Positions 33,317 to 40,498 of a stretch of DNA of 64,000 nt are shown here, piece after piece. The translations under genes and the position numbers were made by a program. The notes beneath the pieces were generated by a model. The model was not told the origin of the DNA, ran no database searches, and worked only from the letters and a program-made list of their open reading frames with translations. The stretch's first letter is position 1. The number at the start of each line of letters is the position of its first letter. The DNA comes from Rhizobiaceae bacterium (GTDB lineage: Bacteria; Pseudomonadota; Alphaproteobacteria; Rhizobiales; Rhizobiaceae), in the NCBI GenBank assembly GCA_965247225.1, contig CBDFGT010000030.1, forward strand, positions 17,456 to 81,455, in the 5' to 3' direction.

Positions 33317-33586
33317 ATGGCAAGCCTGATCACCTGCCCCCATTGCGGGCAACGCCCCAGAGAAGAATTCACCATTCGCGGCGACGCTTCGCTCATCCGC
33401 CCTGCCCCGGATGCGCCACAGGCAGACTGGTATGCCTATGTCTATCTGCGCGACAATCCGCGCGGCCTGTTTGCAGAGCACTGGCATCATTCCGGCGGTT
33501 GCCGCCGCTGGCTGGTGGTCACCCGCGATACCGTGACCCACGAAGTCTACAAGGTGGCAGATGCTGCCGGAGGAGCGGCAGCATGA
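33317..33586 (+). CDS. mgdB: Sarcosine-oxidase delta-like subunit
   Basis: 'MASLITCPHCGQRPREEFTIRGDA...WHHSGGCRRW' (Zn-Cys motif). SD AAAGGAG upstream. Confidence 0.85.
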   Translation: MASLITCPHCGQRPREEFTIRGDASLIRPAPDAPQADWYAYVYLRDNPRGLFAEHWHHSGGCRRWLVVTRDTVTHEVYKVADAAGGAAA

Positions 33587-36546
33587 GTTCCTTTCGCCTG
33601 CCCCATGGCGGTCTTGTGGACCGTTACCTGCCCCTGAACTTCACCTTTGATGGCAAGGCCATGACCGGCCTGACCGGAGACACGCTGGCCTCCGCCCTCC
33701 TGGCCAATGGTCAGCAACTGGTGGGCCGCAGTTTCAAATATCACCGCCCGCGCGGCATTCTGACCGCCGGTGCGGCAGAACCCAATGCGCTGGTCACCCT
33801 GTCTGCCGGGGGACGCACCGAACCCAATACCCGCGCCACCGTGGTGGAACTCTGCAACGGCCTTTCGGCCCGCAGCCAGAACCGCTGGCCTTCACTGGCT
33901 TTTGATATCGGCGCGGTCAACAGCCTCCTGTCGCCCTTTCTCGGTGCCGGTTTCTACTACAAGACCTTCATGTGGCCTGCCCCCCTGTGGGAAAAGCTCT
34001 ATGAACCCTTCATCCGCAAGGCAGCAGGCCTGGGCAAGGCCACCTGTGAAGCAGACCCGGACACATTTGAAAAATGCTGGGCGCATGCCGACCTTCTGGT
34101 GATCGGCGCAGGCCCGGCGGGCCTTGCAGCCGCACTGAGCGCGGCGCGGGCCGGAGCGGATATCATTCTGGCGGATGAGGGATCCGCCATCGGCGGTTCG
34201 CTCCTGTCCGAGACCGCACGGATCAACGGGATGGCGGCACAGGCCTATGCCGAACAGTGCCGTGCCGAACTCTCCGCAATGCCCAATGTCCGCATTCTGC
34301 CGAAAACCACAGTCTTCGGCTGGTATGATGACAATGTTTTCGGTGCCGTCGAGCGTGTGCAGAAACATATGGCGATTGTCGACAGCAACCGCCCTGTCGA
34401 GCGCGTCTGGCGCATTGTTGCCAGACACGCCATTCTGGCCACAGGTGCTGAAGAGCGGCCTCTGGTGTTTGGCGGCAATGACCGGCCGGGCGTGATGATG
34501 GCAGGAGCCATGCGCAGCTATGCCAATCGCTATGGCGTGGCTGCGGGCAAGAGAATTGCCATTTTCACCACCAATGCCGCAGGCTATGCCACGGCGGCCG
34601 ATCTGGAAGCCCATGGTGTCGAAGTCGCCGCCATCATCGACAGCCGCAAGGATGCCGAAACACCCTGGAGCGGCAAGGCACGCCGCATGGCAGGCGGCCA
34701 GCTGGCCGATGTGACCGGCGGAAAATCCGTTTCCGGTATCATGATCCGTATCGACGGCAAGGTGGAAAAGCTTGATGTCGATGCTGTTGCCATGTCCGGC
34801 GGCTGGAGCCCGATCATTCATCTGGCCTGCCATCGCGGCGGCAAGCCGCAATGGAATGAACAGAAATCCGCCTTTATGGCACCGGACGGACTGAAGGGCC
34901 TGAGCGTTGCGGGCTCTGCCGCAGGTCATGAGGATATTGCATCCTGCCTGTCTTCCGGCATCAGCTCCGCCAATGCGGCACTGGAAGCCCTGGGCTATCG
35001 CACAATGCCTGCCGCCACACACACCGTGACAAACAGTTTTTCACCGGAAGACAGCCGTCCGCTCTGGGCTGTAAAGGGCATCAGGGGCAAGGCCTTTGTC
35101 GATTACCAGAATGATGTTCACCTGAAAGATCTCGGCCAGGCGGTGATGGAGGGCTATGCCCATGTGGAGCTGGCCAAGCGATACACAACCAGCGGCATGG
35201 CAACAGACCAGGGAAAACTGTCCAATATCAATGCCATCGGCATTCTGGCCGAGGCCCGCGGCGTCTCGCCCGCAGATGTTGGCACCACAACATTCCGGCC
35301 CTTCTATACGCCGGTTTCCTTTGGTGCGCTGACAGGGGCCAGCAAGGGTTACCATTTCCAGCCGGTGCGCAAATCCCCCTTGCACAACTGGGCCGCCAGG
35401 AATGGTGCTGTCTTTGTCGAGACCGGCCTCTGGTATCGCTCGAGCTGGTTCCCGCGTGATGGCGAGACGACATGGCGCGAAAGCGTCGACCGGGAAGTGA
35501 TCAACACGCGCACGCATGCCGGTCTCTGCGATGTGTCAACTCTTGGAAAAATAGAGATTTTCGGAAAGGATGCCGCAGAATTTCTCAACCGGGTCTATTG
35601 CAATGCCTTTCTGAAACTGCCTGTCGGCAAGGCCCGCTATGGTCTGATGCTGCGCGAAGATGGCATGGTCTATGACGACGGCACGACAAGCCGCCTGTCG
35701 GAAAACCACTATTTCATGACCACCACAACAGCACTGGCCGCCGGTGTCATGACCCATCTGGAATTCTGTGCGCAGGTGCTCTGGCCCGATCTGGATGTAC
35801 GCCTTGCATCCTCCACCGATCAATGGGCGCAGATGGCCATTGCCGGACCAAAATCCCGCGCCATTCTGCAAACCATTGTGGATGACGACATTTCCGGTGA
35901 AGCCTTTCCCTATCTGGCAGCCCGTGAAATTTCCCTGTTTGCCGGCAAGGTTCAGGGCCGGCTTTTCCGGATTTCCTTCTCCGGCGAACTGGCCTTTGAA
36001 CTGGCGGTACCGGCCGGATCGGGCGAAGCGGTAGCCGATGCCCTGATGGAAACAGGCAGGGACAAGGGCCTGCAACCCTATGGCATTGAGGCACTGGGTG
36101 TCATGCGCATTGAAAAGGGGCATGTCACCCACAATGAAATCAATGGCCGCGTGACACCCGGCGACCTGGGTTTTGCAAAAATGGTCTCGCACACAAAAGC
36201 GGATTTTATCGGCAAGGCCATGTTGCAGCGCGAAGGTCTGCAAGACCCGGAACGGCCAAAACTGGTGGGCGTCCGGCCCTTGAACCCGCACCAGACCTTC
36301 AGGACAGGATCGCATATTCTGGGCAAGGATGCGACCCCGACGCTGGAGGCAAGCCAGGGCCATGTCACCTCATCTGCCTTTTCACCCGAATGCGGCCATA
36401 CCATCGGCCTTGCGCTGGTCAGGCACGGGCCGGACCGTCACGGCGAGGAAGTGCATGTCTGGAATGCGCTGCGCAACGAGTTCACACCGGGCATTCTGTG
36501 CGATCCGGTGTTCATTGATCCGGAAAACAGGAAACTCCATGTCTGA
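33583..36546 (+). CDS. mgdC: Sarcosine-oxidase alpha-like subunit (FAD/NAD plus THF-binding GcvT-like C-terminus)
   Basis: Start ATG 33583 overlaps the delta-subunit stop (ATGA). 'DLLVIGAGPAGLAAALSAARAG', and a GcvT-like tail 'ISFSGELAFEL'. Confidence 0.9.
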   Translation: MSSFRLPHGGLVDRYLPLNFTFDGKAMTGLTGDTLASALLANGQQLVGRSFKYHRPRGILTAGAAEPNALVTLSAGGRTEPNTRATVVELCNGLSARSQNRWPSLAFDIGAVNSLLSPFLGAGFYYKTFMWPAPLWEKLYEPFIRKAAGLGKATCEADPDTFEKCWAHADLLVIGAGPAGLAAALSAARAGADIILADEGSAIGGSLLSETARINGMAAQAYAEQCRAELSAMPNVRILPKTTVFGWYDDNVFGAVERVQKHMAIVDSNRPVERVWRIVARHAILATGAEERPLVFGGNDRPGVMMAGAMRSYANRYGVAAGKRIAIFTTNAAGYATAADLEAHGVEVAAIIDSRKDAETPWSGKARRMAGGQLADVTGGKSVSGIMIRIDGKVEKLDVDAVAMSGGWSPIIHLACHRGGKPQWNEQKSAFMAPDGLKGLSVAGSAAGHEDIASCLSSGISSANAALEALGYRTMPAATHTVTNSFSPEDSRPLWAVKGIRGKAFVDYQNDVHLKDLGQAVMEGYAHVELAKRYTTSGMATDQGKLSNINAIGILAEARGVSPADVGTTTFRPFYTPVSFGALTGASKGYHFQPVRKSPLHNWAARNGAVFVETGLWYRSSWFPRDGETTWRESVDREVINTRTHAGLCDVSTLGKIEIFGKDAAEFLNRVYCNAFLKLPVGKARYGLMLREDGMVYDDGTTSRLSENHYFMTTTTALAAGVMTHLEFCAQVLWPDLDVRLASSTDQWAQMAIAGPKSRAILQTIVDDDISGEAFPYLAAREISLFAGKVQGRLFRISFSGELAFELAVPAGSGEAVADALMETGRDKGLQPYGIEALGVMRIEKGHVTHNEINGRVTPGDLGFAKMVSHTKADFIGKAMLQREGLQDPERPKLVGVRPLNPHQTFRTGSHILGKDATPTLEASQGHVTSSAFSPECGHTIGLALVRHGPDRHGEEVHVWNALRNEFTPGILCDPVFIDPENRKLHV

Positions 36547-37111
36547 TTTTGCCATCCTGTCGCGCCCTGCCCTTGCCGCTGTTACCCCTGGCCATTTCGG
36601 CACAAGGTCAGATGTTCCGGGCATCGTCCTGACCGCATTGCCGGAAGGCCATGTGCTGCACATTCTGGGGGCAGCCGGTGCCACGCACCATCTCCAGCAA
36701 CTGGCACAGGAAGCCGGAAAACTGGGCAGTTCCGTGCCGCGCTTCACAGCGCCCGGCCAGTGGTTCATCGTTGGCGACACCGTGTTGTCCCCGGCCGGCA
36801 TAGCGCAGTTTGCTGCTGCCATTGGCAATTTTGCAGCCGTGTCAGATCAGAGCCATGGCCGCGTCCGGATCAGGGTTGAAGGCGGCAAGGTGGAAACCAT
36901 GCTGGCCAAAGGCATCGCTGTCAACCTTGCGGTCAGGGCATTCCCGCCCGGCACCTCGGCCACCATGATCTGCGGCCATGTGAGCGTGCACGTCACCCGG
37001 TTGTCGGAGACGGAATTTGAACTGATGGTTTTGCGCGGCTTTGCAGAAGACCTCTGGCACAGCCTGGTGCAGATGGGGCTGGAATTCGGCGTGGAATGCC
37101 GGCGCGCCTGA
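36539..37111 (+). CDS. mgdD: Sarcosine-oxidase gamma-like subunit
   Basis: ATG 36539 overlaps the alpha-subunit stop. 190 aa. Assigned from position and size. Confidence 0.7.
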   Translation: MSDFAILSRPALAAVTPGHFGTRSDVPGIVLTALPEGHVLHILGAAGATHHLQQLAQEAGKLGSSVPRFTAPGQWFIVGDTVLSPAGIAQFAAAIGNFAAVSDQSHGRVRIRVEGGKVETMLAKGIAVNLAVRAFPPGTSATMICGHVSVHVTRLSETEFELMVLRGFAEDLWHSLVQMGLEFGVECRRA

Positions 37112-37142: not shown

Positions 37143-37775
37143 TCACAGCACCATTCCATGTTCTTCCCAGATGGGCCCGATCACCGGATGGGAAACCAGC
37201 CGGTCCATAAGCCGGGCGATTCTCGGATTTTGCGTGCGAAAACCGGCAAGGTCATCCCGCCAGAAGGCCAGCATTCCGGCATAGATGTCCACCGCACTCA
37301 ACCTGTCGCCAAGCAGCAGACCGGCCTCATCCAGAGCCTGCTCATAGACCGACCAGGCTTGCACAATGCGCTGGTCGGCAGAAGCCTTGATCCCTGCCGC
37401 TGCCGAAGGATCTGTCGAATAGCGCTCACTATAATAATAATTGAGCGCATTCATGTAGATATTCGCCGAAAGATAGACCATCCAGCGCAGATGAACAGGC
37501 CGCTTTGCACTGTCGACCAGCGGTGCCAGACCGGCATGCGGCGCAATATCGGCAAGATAGAGAATGATGGCAGCCGATTCGGTCAAAATCTTGCCGCCGG
37601 GCAGAACGAGGGTCGGCACCTGGCCGAGCGGATTGATGGCCATGAATTCGGCAGGCGGCCTTCCATCCGCCGCTTTTTCAACCTCCACCACTTCATAAGG
37701 CAGGCCCGACAGGGCCAGCACTGCCTCGCAGGCAGCCGAACCCGAACCCGATCGGCCATAAAGCGTATATGTCAT
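37143..37775 (-). CDS. Glutathione S-transferase family protein
   Basis: Thioredoxin-like N-terminus 'MTYTLYGRSGSGSAACEAVLAL...NPLGQVPTLVLPGGKILTESAAIILYL'. SD AAGGAGA upstream. Confidence 0.8.
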   Translation of the reverse strand: MTYTLYGRSGSGSAACEAVLALSGLPYEVVEVEKAADGRPPAEFMAINPLGQVPTLVLPGGKILTESAAIILYLADIAPHAGLAPLVDSAKRPVHLRWMVYLSANIYMNALNYYYSERYSTDPSAAAGIKASADQRIVQAWSVYEQALDEAGLLLGDRLSAVDIYAGMLAFWRDDLAGFRTQNPRIARLMDRLVSHPVIGPIWEEHGMVL

Positions 37776-37838
37776 GCGCGTTCGTCTCCTTTTTGGAGAC
37801 ACTATCGCAGCCTGGTCCCCGGGCAAGGGAAAATACGC

Positions 37839-38915
37839 TCAGGATTGCAGATATTTTGTCAGCGGTGCTGAACGGTCCGGCACGCTCAGGGTCAGGGCAT
37901 AGACCGGCGCATGGGTGATTTTTGTCAGACCCAGCAGGCTCTTGATGGCTGTATGCCGGAGAGCCGCAGTCGGACAGGCTGTCAGCCCGTGGTCGGTCGC
38001 AGACAACATGATATTCTGGCCGATATGCCCGGCCTCGATCAGCACCACACGATAGGCATTGGCATCGACATATTTCCACATCGTGCGTTCCAGATGGGCG
38101 CACAGAAGAATCATGCAGGGCTTGTCATCGGCCCATTCCTGGCCGCCGGTCAAAGCTGCAAACGACACATCCGCAATGTCACCATGGACAAAACCCAGCG
38201 AATGTTCCATGGCCGAATAGTGATAGACGCCCGGCTCCAGACCGGACACATGTCTGGCAATGATATAGGCTTCATAGGGGTTTCGCGCACCGCCCGAAGG
38301 CGTCATCGAAAGCGGAAGCCGGCCAACACAATTTTCCGTTTCGCCGGTAATACCAAGGCCTGCAAACAGGCAATCCGACAGCTGTTGCAGCGAAACAGGC
38401 TCGGCCAGGGCCTTGCGCACGGTGCGCCGCGCCGCCATGGTTTGCAGCAACGGCCTGCTGGACAGCGAATGCGGCAGGGATACCTGTTTGTCATAAAGGA
38501 CATTGGATTGGTGCAGGGCAATTTTGCCGCTGTGTTCAACCTTTTCAACTTGCAGGTTTTCAGCCTGTTCCAGCGACATGAAATCATTGTCCTGAACGGA
38601 ATAGTGCATCAATGCGGCCGGAATGCCCCAGCTCCAGGAGCTTTCATAGTCAGCCTCACGGGCGGCCAGATCCGTTCCCTCGCGCACCAGCGCAGATATG
38701 GACACAAGATTGTCGATGGCATCCTGCAACTCACCGGCTTCAAGGTCCGGAATCATCGTGGAAAGTTCGGAAAAATCTTTCCACTCATCCATCCTGGCAA
38801 GCAGGCTCAGGACATCCTGACTGCAATGGAAAACCGACTTTGTCAGAAAATTGCAGGCAGTGATCATGCCGTCCGACTGAGAAAAGACAAGGGATTTGGC
38901 AGCTTTTACACGCAT
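37839..38915 (-). CDS. SagB/ThcOx/McbC-type nitroreductase-fold dehydrogenase with an RRE-like (PqqD-like) N-terminal domain
   Basis: C-terminal half: 'RRTVRKALAEP', 'MTPSGGARNPYEAYII', 'IEAGHIGQNIMLSA'. N-terminal ~95 aa, 'SLVFSQSDGMITACNFLTKSVFHCSQDVLSLLARM...ELQDAIDNLVSISALV', has a beta3-alpha3 pattern. Start is set at ATG 38915 (AAAGGTG upstream). Confidence 0.65.
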   Translation of the reverse strand: MRVKAAKSLVFSQSDGMITACNFLTKSVFHCSQDVLSLLARMDEWKDFSELSTMIPDLEAGELQDAIDNLVSISALVREGTDLAAREADYESSWSWGIPAALMHYSVQDNDFMSLEQAENLQVEKVEHSGKIALHQSNVLYDKQVSLPHSLSSRPLLQTMAARRTVRKALAEPVSLQQLSDCLFAGLGITGETENCVGRLPLSMTPSGGARNPYEAYIIARHVSGLEPGVYHYSAMEHSLGFVHGDIADVSFAALTGGQEWADDKPCMILLCAHLERTMWKYVDANAYRVVLIEAGHIGQNIMLSATDHGLTACPTAALRHTAIKSLLGLTKITHAPVYALTLSVPDRSAPLTKYLQS

Positions 38916-39010
38916 GGTCACACCTTTGAAAGGCCGGACCTGAACCTGTGGTCCGGAAAGGGGAAATGTGGTGCAGGAAGCGGATCGGACGCTTTGCATC
39001 TGCGATCTTC

Positions 39011-39037
39011 AAAGAAAAGGCACTGGCAAGACGTGCC
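39011..39037 (-). terminator. Weak hairpin plus U-rich tract between the short ORF and the dehydrogenase gene (possible attenuator)
   Basis: Minus-strand GGCAC-N9-GUGCC followed by UUUUCUUU. A second hairpin, AACGCU-UGC-AGCGUU, lies at 39046..39060. Confidence 0.3.
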
Positions 39038-39118
39038 GGAACAGGAACGCTGCAAGCGTTACGGTCGCGCCGCCGTGCGGCACGACCCTGCCCGTCGATG
39101 CATCATGGACGACCTGAA

Positions 39119-39223
39119 TTACTCGGGACGAAACATCATGCCGGGAGTTACGAAGGAACCCTTTGCGGCAACGGCGGCAACGGCTTTCAGGTCGGGCTTC
39201 TGCTTGGCTGTAATCTGCATCAT
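39119..39223 (-). CDS. Short ORF (34 codons; 33 from the second ATG): candidate precursor peptide MMQITAKQKPDLKAVAAVAAKGSFVTPGMMFRPE
   Basis: Not in the supplied ORF track (too short). SD AAAGGAG lies 3 or 6 nt before the tandem ATG ATG. By hand count about 70% of third codon positions are G/C, unlike the adjacent spacer. Sits directly upstream of the SagB-like gene on the same strand. Confidence 0.45.
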   Translation of the reverse strand: MMQITAKQKPDLKAVAAVAAKGSFVTPGMMFRPE

Positions 39224-39488
39224 ATGCTCCTTTTGGTTGGGCCACTCACTTGGCACAGGGCAATCATTGGCAAAAACAGTTAAAAATCTGTAAAAACAAA
39301 AGTAAATTTGAATATATTTTAACTAGAGAATTACGCTATTTATTTTAAATTCTTTCTCTATTTAATTTAAATCAGCTTAAAATAACATAACAAGCAGTAC
39401 AGAGTATTTTATTTCAGGAATATTGATTAAAATGTGATTTTACATCATGTTGCAGTCCATACAAACATGCAGGGGAAGCATAGGGACT

Positions 39489-39698
39489 ATGGAATCAACG
39501 AGTTTCGACTTTGACGTCACACTTCAGGCAGCAGGAAAAAACAACGCGGATGTGGCAAGATGGATCTTTGAATCTCTCAAGCCGCTGCGAACGGCCTGCA
39601 TGGAAAATCAATATGATTTCATGGCTTACCTTATCGAAATGACAGAAGTGGAAGCCTTCAGGGTCATGACCGAACAGCAAAAACAACGTTCTATATGA
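39489..39698 (+). CDS. Small acidic hypothetical protein (69 aa; 83 aa if started at 39447)
   Basis: Open frame only, with no recognisable motif. Divergent from the peptide/dehydrogenase unit. Confidence 0.35.
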   Translation: MESTSFDFDVTLQAAGKNNADVARWIFESLKPLRTACMENQYDFMAYLIEMTEVEAFRVMTEQQKQRSI

Positions 39699-39706
39699 GA
39701 TAACGC

Positions 39707-40498
39707 TTATATATTCGGGTATATATTTCCAAGATCACGCTTTTGTTGATCGATACAGGCAACGATGTATTTCTCGACAAAAGGATCATTCACAGAAAAA
39801 ATTTTGGAATTTTTCAAGGCCGAGCGAATGTCGGTACCCTGTTTTGCAGGGTGCATTGCAACCGCAACGACAGATGGTCCATTTTGGGTAAGCACCATAC
39901 CATGTCCGGACAACACCGGCAGTGACAGGGGAACCCAGCGCAAACGAATAAGAGAGGGTTCCTTTGTGCCTGTCTGGTTTATGCCTGTCAAAAGAAAGGA
40001 GTTCAGGCGTTCCAGAATGACACCCTTGTGGTTGCCGACAATATGAGACCAGTGTGATCCTTCTTTTGTCGCGAACCCGGTCATTCTGCGGAAGGTGACC
40101 ATATCCCCTTCCCGTTTGATAAAAATCGCTGTGCACATCAAGAAGTCATGCATCCCTGGAATGGCAATCCACAAATAATAGATCCCCGGATTGAGCGACG
40201 GTGCCGGAAGATCGAAAAGCGGCTCCAGTGTTTCCTTGCAGCTTGCAAGCATGCGCGCGCTGGATTTGTTGCCGGTCTTCAGATCTATTCTGGGCGGATC
40301 GGCAAACAGCTCCTGTTCCTCGACATTGAAATAACGGCACAGCGTTTTCAGCGTCGTCAGGCTTGGTGTCGACTGCATGGTGAGATAGCGTTCAAACTGC
40401 TGCCGGTTGAGCCCCATATCCCTGCATGCTGAATTGATGCTTCCCCTGGCAAGACACAGGCGTCGCAAATTCTCCGCCAGATTACCGCGTACCGACAT
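39707..40498 (-). CDS. XRE-family HTH regulator with an uncharacterised ~200-aa C-terminal domain
   Basis: HTH 'LARGSINSACRDMGLNRQQFERYLTMQSTPSLTTLKTLCRYFNV'. Start ATG 40498 is preceded by GGGGGA. Low GC. Confidence 0.7.
   Translation of the reverse strand: MSVRGNLAENLRRLCLARGSINSACRDMGLNRQQFERYLTMQSTPSLTTLKTLCRYFNVEEQELFADPPRIDLKTGNKSSARMLASCKETLEPLFDLPAPSLNPGIYYLWIAIPGMHDFLMCTAIFIKREGDMVTFRRMTGFATKEGSHWSHIVGNHKGVILERLNSFLLTGINQTGTKEPSLIRLRWVPLSLPVLSGHGMVLTQNGPSVVAVAMHPAKQGTDIRSALKNSKIFSVNDPFVEKYIVACIDQQKRDLGNIYPNI

Follow-up and report, generated by a model that had tools for sequence, protein, structure and literature searches.

Introduction

SagB-type dehydrogenases are the textbook azoline oxidases. 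In the crystal structure of BmdC, a 96-residue winged-helix domain that resembles a RiPP recognition element (RRE; RiPP, peptide synthesized by the ribosome and modified after translation) is accompanied by a 45-residue wrapping loop and an oxidase domain, with the flavin mononucleotide (FMN) held by Arg145, Arg146, Ser147 and Arg149 and Tyr260 proposed as the base (PMC8795117). In trifolitoxin biosynthesis TfxE is YcaO-like, the tiarins require the TfxB and TfxC pair, and 'stand-alone' SagB homologues appear in the tiarin preprint as an outgroup only (bioRxiv 10.64898/2025.12.02.691738). The one non-azole role for SagB proteins that we found in the literature is that of the TfxB/TfxC pair of tiarins, which is still a proposal. 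Here we analyse a stretch of 64,000 nucleotides from a Rhizobiaceae bacterium (assembly GCA_965247225.1, contig CBDFGT010000030.1, positions 17,456 to 81,455; hereafter the window), in which a 33-codon open reading frame (ORF) lies upstream of a gene for a SagB-type enzyme with a predicted RRE-like N-terminal domain, together with genes for an XRE-type regulator and a small acidic protein. On balance we favour the view that this cassette is an uncharacterised RiPP-like system, in which the RRE-SagB protein carries out a leader-guided oxidation of the encoded peptide.

The locus had been singled out in an earlier sequence-only reading, which took trifolitoxin as a precedent for SagB-like enzymes working without a YcaO protein. 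That background conflicts with the tiarin preprint, where TfxE is YcaO-like (bioRxiv 10.64898/2025.12.02.691738). The other claims of that reading are taken up below together with the results that bear on them.

A conserved short gene upstream of a single SagB-type gene

On the minus strand of the window, the order of genes from 5' to 3' is XRE gene, 33-codon ORF, spacer, SagB gene and a glutathione S-transferase (GST) gene, and the small acidic ORF is divergent from the 33-codon ORF and convergent with the XRE gene (Table 1). All five ORFs are present where the sequence-only reading had placed them. Its description of the arrangement was also accurate, since we find a GGAG Shine-Dalgarno (SD) sequence ahead of the peptide ORF, a spacer of 203 nt with an 11-bp GC-rich hairpin, 63 nt between the SagB and GST genes and 8 nt between the convergent XRE gene and small ORF.

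Relatives were collected by scanning a one-genome-per-species collection, which gave 195, and the best 80 of these were retained; with two loci fetched via a protein index and the window itself, the sample comprises 83 loci of root and soil bacteria, from Hyphomicrobiales plus a few neighbouring lineages. All ORFs within 5 kb on either side of the 83 loci were clustered. Clustering showed that only two families, SagB and the XRE-barrel regulator, cross genus boundaries, and the conservation of the peptide and of the small protein was found separately. SagB homologues as a whole make up more than 1,100 protein clusters, the closest coming from Rhizobium and Mesorhizobium, and many hosts of the cassette are symbionts of these two genera. 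Since the flanking genes vary from genus to genus, the cassette itself is the conserved unit, and it travels as a unit in Hyphomicrobiales.

A complete cassette (helix-turn-helix (HTH) regulator, 77-aa divergent ORF and a SagB protein of 56% identity) also occurs on a 734-kb plasmid labelled 'UNVERIFIED_ORG: Roseateles sp. XES5' (NZ_CP084754.1; locus L088). The label is betaproteobacterial and flagged as an unverified organism; judged by its content, the replicon is probably a mis-assigned Rhizobiales chromid or plasmid.

Upstream of SagB, on the same strand, a single ORF of 21–40 aa was found at 83 of 83 loci. It usually ends 50–80 nt ahead of the SagB start and carries a recognisable SD sequence at 81 of 82 loci. 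The sequence-only reading had staked its proposal on the short ORF being a conserved partner of the dehydrogenase, and this partnership holds throughout the sample. The window peptide, MQITAKQKPDLKAVAAVAAKGSFVTPGMMFRPE, contains an N-terminal KQKPDLKAV segment and a C-terminal FVTPGMMFRPE segment, both of which match family motifs: a Lys-rich leader motif, (K)xN[LI][ST]V(K)P, and a core motif, F(-11)-[VF]-[ST]-[PQ]-G(-7)-M(-6)-x-[YF](-4)-[NR]-K-x, whose logo is anchored at the C-terminus. The conserved core residues lie at positions -4, -6, -7 and -11 from the stop codon, with the aromatic residue at -4 rarely replaced by Leu, and positions -1 to -3 are the most variable. The peptide ORF of L083, a locus whose SagB protein is 92% identical to that of the window, has the second ATG only.

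Nucleotide comparisons were made with 32 distinct Mesorhizobium versions of the peptide ORF. Variable sites are distributed 13/6/18 over the three codon positions and 53% of the codon differences are synonymous, which therefore amounts to a coding-type substitution pattern. The Mesorhizobium ORF shows 92.5% nucleotide identity, and the region upstream of it is not alignable. Judged by these substitutions, the short ORF is a translated gene under purifying selection. Public records annotate the peptide as 'hypothetical protein', and NCBIfam holds no model for it. Long proteins that fell into 90%-identity clusters with peptides of 30–33 aa (P0154–P0217) were rejected as gene fusions; they are unrelated proteins (D-Ala-D-Ala ligase-like, FtsH-like and ankyrin-repeat) and their grouping is a clustering artefact.

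The window peptide has no Cys, one Ser and two Thr. The sequence-only reading had drawn attention to this composition, which is correct for the window but is not a family trait: position -9 is Ser or Thr in many family peptides, and position -5 is Cys in some. Such residues, together with the canonical SagB domain, its FMN motif and its W-K-Y motif, would suit a conventional azole-forming pathway of the thiazole/oxazole-modified microcin (TOMM) or linear azole-containing peptide (LAP) type, the cyclodehydratase being encoded elsewhere in the genome. However, these residues at -9 and -5 are not conserved family-wide, 11 of the 65 distinct peptides are devoid of Cys, Ser and Thr in their last 10 residues, no conserved YcaO family occurs within 5 kb of any of the 83 loci, and the cassette changes genomic context as a whole. 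We regard a conventional azole pathway as very improbable. With 11 of the 65 peptides having a C-terminal stretch of 10 residues free of Cys, Ser and Thr, and with none of the three kept at any position family-wide, the peptide sequences of the family do not suit the canonical azoline-to-azole role, in agreement with what had been suggested for the window.

The SagB-type enzyme and its N-terminal domain

Hidden Markov model (HMM) searches with the 358-aa protein gave matches to TIGR03605 (99.6 bits, cutoff 78.4) and to PF00881 (E = 1e-20), bearing out its earlier assignment to the SagB/McbC type. The protein consists of a winged-helix domain (residues ~1–95), a linker (~96–150) and a nitroreductase-fold oxidase domain (~153–345), the last with an FMN motif, R163-R164-T165-x-R167, and a W280-K281-Y282 motif. 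R163, R164, R167 and the W-K-Y motif with K281 and Y282 are invariant in 68 SagB homologues, and the motifs align with tRRSIRE and WKY of ThcOx and with 3eo7. Roles for the SagB arginine motif and the Lys-Tyr pair are also said to have been described by Melby et al. in 2014. SagB is present as one gene per locus at 83 of 83 loci.

An AlphaFold2 (AF2) model of the enzyme has a predicted local distance difference test score (pLDDT) of 88.6 and a predicted template modelling score (pTM) of 0.84. Within its N-terminal domain, strands are predicted at residues 3–5, 9–14, 17–22 and 27–30 and helices at 33–40, 48–54 and 60–72, with pLDDT above 90. The best Foldseek matches are BmdC (7LY7) and ThcOx (5LQ4/8PZ5), both over the full length, followed by McbC; AlbAB is a more distant match. 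A profile of residues 1–98 found no known RRE in PDB or Pfam even at E <= 10. RREs are very divergent in sequence, so a negative profile search is weak. The assignment of the domain therefore relies on the predicted fold and the domain architecture, and the sequence-only proposal of an RRE-like N-terminus stands for the fold (AF2 and Foldseek) but not for sequence profiles. An RRE-like N-terminal domain is supported by these models. Pairwise identity is 43% in the N-terminal domain and 68% in the oxidase domain, and ten N-terminal positions are invariant; this degree of identity and the invariant residues argue that the N-terminal domain is not a decaying relic.

Conjugative rhizobial plasmids encode a paralogue that matches the RRE-SagB protein over its full length (33% identity over 97%), at L089 1–8841 (Sinorhizobium medicae pWSM1115_3) and L087 5932–7823 (a plasmid of R. 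leguminosarum). The paralogue gene lies directly upstream of a gene for a 4'-phosphopantetheinyl transferase, and its neighbours encode an AMP-binding protein, a cobalamin-dependent protein, a 3-dehydroquinate synthase II and an HpaB-like hydroxylase; in L087 its upstream region is interrupted by an insertion sequence (IS) element. This locus looks like a small-molecule pathway that uses a carrier protein rather than a RiPP pathway.

The hairpin in the intergenic spacer

Downstream of the peptide stop codon, 76 of 79 distinct spacers contain a GC-rich stem of at least 8 bp; in the window its sequence is GGUCGUGCCGC-ACG-GCGGCGCGACC, with 11 bp. The median stem has 13 bp and 77% GC and starts ~8 nt past the peptide stop; from its end to the SagB ATG there are ~27 nt, and the SagB SD sequence is left uncovered. 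The hairpins are more stable than shuffled sequences (median z = -3.3, with 89% of spacers below -2), and their sequences differ between clades while the structure is retained. A U-tail follows 11 of 78 hairpins. A hairpin between precursor and enzyme genes is the usual layout of a RiPP operon.

The same features may be read in another way, in which the short ORF is not a substrate but a cis-acting leader peptide acting by ribosome arrest or attenuation. In the exit tunnel, the growing chain would detect a metabolite, and a ribosome paused at or near the stop codon would block the hairpin and so permit expression of SagB, which would act on a small molecule and carry its RRE-like domain as a relic. 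The size of the peptide (26–40 aa) fits the exit tunnel, its conserved residues stand at a fixed distance from the stop codon, the hairpin begins within the footprint of a terminating ribosome, and there is one copy of the ORF per locus; moreover, an RRE-like relic is known in BmdC (PMC8795117), and the closest plasmid paralogue of the enzyme lies in a non-RiPP context. On the other side, the conserved N-terminal leader motif, the clear constraint on the RRE-like domain and the presence of a dedicated transcription factor in the cassette count against this model. The hairpins rarely have a U-tail, end ~27 nt ahead of the ATG and do not sequester the SagB SD sequence, and no alternative antiterminator pairing that overlaps the ORF was found. 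The last three residues of the peptide are its most variable and include no conserved C-terminal Pro, features in which it differs from arrest peptides of the TnaC and SecM type. We consider it unlikely that the short ORF is a regulatory leader peptide, and retain the view of it as a precursor for the enzyme.

At 203 nt, the spacer of the window is unusually long: L083, the 92%-identical relative, has 69 nt, and almost every other locus has 50–80 nt. The surplus of ~130 nt is unique in the window and the surveyed loci, and it supplies an in-frame upstream ATG (38999) that inflates the SagB ORF to 386 aa. The idea that the spacer is a structured RNA was rejected, as it folds only marginally more stably than shuffled sequences (z = -1.7), and no repeat corresponding to it was seen in the window or the loci.

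The XRE-barrel regulator, the promoter region and the small acidic protein

The XRE-type regulator comprises an HTH domain (residues ~1–64; PF13443), a helix (80–95), an antiparallel barrel (~105–217) and a C-terminal helix. In its AF2 model (pLDDT 82.5) the barrel is eight-stranded and of the up-and-down type. The barrel has weak fold matches only (E >= 4e-3), to designed beta-barrels, nitrophorins, lipocalins and fatty-acid-binding proteins, that is, ligand-binding barrels. A search of 1.84 billion representatives with the barrel alone and no word filter returned 86 proteins, nearly all of them 245–280 aa long with the barrel at ~95–260. The barrel is thus almost confined to the XRE-barrel architecture, and the XRE-barrel protein is therefore a dedicated component. 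Its gene lies upstream on the SagB strand at 79 of 83 loci and is co-located at ~82 of 83 overall. L003–L005 are loci without an upstream XRE gene in the survey, and a distant XRE homologue in divergent orientation, found at L085 (Rhodobiaceae, on the same contig as L003), is consistent with this gap.

In the divergent promoter region, a 21-bp block, ATAGCGTAATTCTCTAGTTAA, is near-invariant in the window, L083 and L001 although its flanks have diverged, and is retained in L001, where SagB is only 66% identical. The block is absent from the other clades, and no family-wide operator was found. It is a plausible candidate operator for the XRE-barrel protein, to judge from its conservation. A promoter-like match at 39371–39342 is not above chance.

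The small acidic protein has the motif W/Y-I-x-E-x-L-(x10-13)-F-M/L-x-Y-L-I/L-x-M-x-x-x-E-A. A seeded profile detected a 45-residue helix-loop-helix motif (Y-I-x-x-M-…-F-L-x-Y-L-L-x-M-A-x-x-E-A) at 57 of 83 loci. In loci of the window type the gene is divergent and lies between the XRE and peptide genes, and in Mesorhizobium it is directly downstream of SagB on the same strand; the retention of the association while the position changes is good evidence for a functional link. The protein belongs to no Pfam, NCBIfam or PADLOC family. Its detectable relatives are close ones, all annotated as 'hypothetical', and none was detected outside the cassette. Both the XRE gene and the small ORF had been treated as bystanders in the sequence-only reading; given their occurrence at ~82 and 57 of the 83 loci, they are instead conserved partners. 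Membership of the cassette in anti-phage defence or toxin-antitoxin systems was rejected, as PADLOC gave no hits.

A dedicated regulator with a barrel of this kind raises the prospect of a peptide-signal or stress circuit, in which the peptide, either unmodified or modified by SagB, would stay inside the cell as a ligand or antagonist of the XRE-barrel or helix-loop-helix protein rather than being a secreted product. This would accord with the lack of a conserved exporter or protease, with the resemblance of the cassette-exclusive barrel to ligand-binding, calycin-type barrels, with the conserved putative operator block in the divergent promoter, and with a core that is highly conserved, as in precursors of cofactors and signals, and not hypervariable, as in antibiotics. 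Against this, the fold matches of the barrel are weak, and the idea overlaps with peptide modification, since SagB would still modify the peptide and the fate of the product alone would differ. As a separate explanation we think such a circuit improbable.

Layout of the locus and neighbouring genes

Table 1. Features of the cassette and its surroundings, in positions of the window
Feature	Position	Strand	Remarks
GST	37143-37775	-	210 aa; 63 nt downstream of SagB
RRE-like/SagB-type FMN dehydrogenase	37839-38915	-	358 aa
Peptide-SagB spacer	38916-39118		203 nt
GC-rich hairpin inside spacer	39063-39087	-	11 bp
Putative precursor peptide ORF	39119-39220	-	33 aa; 34 aa if from extra ATG 39223
AT-rich divergent promoter region between small-protein and peptide genes	39221-39488		31% GC
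Conserved 21-bp block	39319-39339	-	98 nt upstream of peptide ATG
Small acidic helix-loop-helix ORF	39489-39698	+	69 aa; 83 aa if from 39447
XRE-type regulator gene	39707-40498	-	263 aa

The region from the XRE gene to the GST gene has a GC content of 0.52, compared with 0.59 in the left flank, 0.56 in the right flank and 0.57 on average in the window. By segment, the values are 0.31 for the divergent intergenic region, 0.45 for the small ORF, 0.50 for the XRE gene, 0.55 for SagB and 0.58 for the GST gene. The 'low-GC islet' of the sequence-only reading is thus real for the intergenic region, the small ORF and the XRE gene, whereas SagB and the GST gene are at the window average.

The GST has GST_N and GST_C domains and reaches no equivalog. 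A GST gene downstream of SagB is confined to the window, L083 and L001 (SagB 66% identical), L001 being the only case found by tblastn and L083 being found from gene calls; the 81 other loci of the survey are without it. The three loci that have it share synteny in the neighbouring sox genes too. On this distribution the GST gene is a clade-specific neighbour and not part of the core cassette, so that its inclusion in the module as first proposed does not hold beyond the window and its two closest relatives. It is probably co-transcribed with SagB in the window. The operon at 33343–37111, called 'mgd' at first, looks like a heterotetrameric sarcosine-oxidase-type (sox) operon, and the syntenic genes of L001 and L083 carry DAO, SoxD, SO_alpha_A3/GCV_T and GCV_T domains. 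A listed 1067-aa ORF in this operon has a TTG start well upstream of its probable start. In a plasmid megablast, the flanking sugar genes matched Sinorhizobium pSymB at only ~75% identity.

No YcaO, protease or exporter family is conserved within 5 kb of the 83 loci, as had been noted for the window, and no YcaO was present among the Pfam-annotated neighbours. In Mesorhizobium sp. INR15 (L084; 7138–9001 and 8051–10413), two ORFs of 92 and 104 aa without a family follow the gene for the helix-loop-helix protein, and further on there is a convergent TonB-ExbD-ExbB set with an ABC exporter; these are conserved within the genus only.

Discussion

Among the grounds on which we favour an RRE-SagB enzyme that oxidises the encoded peptide, the peptide has two separately conserved segments in a leader/core layout, and the di-domain model of SagB shares the layout of BmdC, with AlbAB among the fold matches. 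The product would probably be a peptide modified by chemistry not yet described. In the mechanism that we propose, the 33-aa peptide would be translated from its own SD sequence, and the hairpin past its stop codon would stabilise or partly terminate the transcript, which would yield more peptide mRNA than enzyme mRNA. The leader, (K)xN[LI][ST]V, would dock as an added strand on the RRE-like domain of a dimeric FMN enzyme. In the oxidase domain, the tyrosine of the W-K-Y motif would act as base and N5 of FMN as hydride acceptor in a two-electron oxidation within the core sequence G-M-x-[Y/F]. The likeliest reaction would be that a C-alpha/C-beta bond is dehydrogenated, on the invariant aromatic residue (rarely Leu) or right next to it. 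By analogy this is the most likely chemistry for the core, because the canonical reaction of SagB enzymes on azolines is formally a C-alpha/C-beta dehydrogenation and cyclodipeptide oxidases carry out such a reaction on Phe and Leu. The XRE-barrel protein would control the divergent promoter, its barrel probably sensing a small ligand, possibly the product, and the helix-loop-helix protein may be an accessory factor.

Several observations weigh against this view. We know of no precedent in the SagB enzyme family for desaturating an unactivated residue of a linear peptide. No protease or exporter that would release a mature product is conserved. The profile of the N-terminal domain recovered no known RRE, and the plasmid paralogue looks like part of a small-molecule pathway. 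The fixed distance from core to stop codon and the hairpin 8 nt past the stop are also compatible with the ORF being a regulatory leader peptide. RRE-like domains that are relics, such as that of BmdC, count on the same side (PMC8795117).

A bolder version, which we think rather unlikely, is that the cassette defines a new class of ribosomal peptides, oxidised under guidance of the leader by a lone RRE-SagB enzyme, for instance by alpha,beta-dehydrogenation of the invariant Tyr/Phe in G-M-x-[Y/F], whose product is sensed by the XRE/beta-barrel receptor in a hitherto unrecognised signal or cofactor circuit widespread among rhizobia; in the clade of the window, the GST could then plausibly act on an electrophilic dehydro-residue.

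Whatever its product, the cassette is a real and widespread orphan that is experimentally tractable, as two genes can be tested in E. coli. If the peptide is modified, the cassette would represent a flavoenzyme reaction new for ribosomal peptides, its RiPP gene set would be among the smallest known, and a function would be assigned to both the regulator fold and the small protein, which are orphans at present. If the short ORF is a leader peptide instead, it would represent a new arrest or attenuation system in alphaproteobacteria.

Comparison with known systems

Searches of the full-text literature, NCBIfam, Pfam and PADLOC found no description of the peptide, the small protein, the barrel or the pairing of peptide and enzyme, and the RefSeq names of the cassette proteins are generic. 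The sequence-only reading had left open whether the pairing was already catalogued; no catalogued family matches it.

The closest curated full-length family is TIGR04511 of NCBIfam ('putative peptide maturation dehydrogenase'), which aligns over most of SagB. We rejected membership, since the window and Mesorhizobium proteins score 141 bits against a cutoff of 240. TIGR04511 is a family that we take to be bioinformatically defined and YcaO-less, and it is presumably accompanied by a partner peptide and a cyclase, both of which are absent from the cassette.

ThcOx (5LQ4/8PZ5) and BmdC (7LY7) resemble the window protein in having an FMN oxidase domain with RRxxR and W-K-Y motifs, an RRE-like winged helix and a linker, at 16–20% sequence identity. 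They oxidise thiazolines made by a YcaO protein or by the Cy domain of a nonribosomal peptide synthetase, whereas the cassette is without a cyclodehydratase and many of its cores are without Cys, Ser and Thr. Of the TOMM/LAP features, neither a YcaO protein accompanying the dehydrogenase nor a core with cyclisable Cys, Ser or Thr is found as a conserved trait of the 83 loci.

The tiarins are likewise rhizobial and have RRE-fused FMN dehydrogenases with a proposed non-azole modification (bioRxiv 10.64898/2025.12.02.691738). They also share with the cassette a precursor gene immediately upstream, a strong SD sequence and a Lys-rich leader. They differ in using the TfxB and TfxC pair on an X-Gln-Gly core, often with GNAT or aminoacyl-tRNA synthetase immunity genes and an exporter, while the cassette, with its XRE-barrel regulator, has one enzyme only and shows neither a conserved Gln nor genes for immunity or export. 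With one SagB gene per locus throughout the 83 loci and no X-Gln-Gly, the cassette was rejected as a tiarin system.

AlbAB (8UC3/9EXV) is a nitroreductase-fold flavoenzyme that catalyses C-alpha/C-beta dehydrogenation of Phe and Leu side chains (PMC10557607), which gives the reaction proposed on the conserved Y/F/L a chemical precedent. Unlike the cassette enzyme, it acts on diketopiperazines and forms a two-subunit filament without an RRE, and its fold match is distant (E ~5e-7). A different likeness is to PqqA/PqqD and MftA/MftB, in which an RRE recognises a precursor that is very short, has a conserved and not hypervariable core, and ends a few residues beyond an invariant aromatic residue. 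Those pathways employ radical-SAM enzymes and dedicated peptidases, and no sequence homology between them and the cassette was found.

Of the generic features of RiPP clusters, a precursor gene adjoining the modifying enzyme is present at 83 of 83 loci. Conserved genes for a leader peptidase or an exporter are lacking, and those for TonB/ExbBD and ABC proteins in Mesorhizobium reflect genus-specific synteny. Set beside these systems, what characterises the cassette is a single RRE-SagB enzyme locked to a conserved short peptide at 83 loci, with many of its substrates unable to form azoles.

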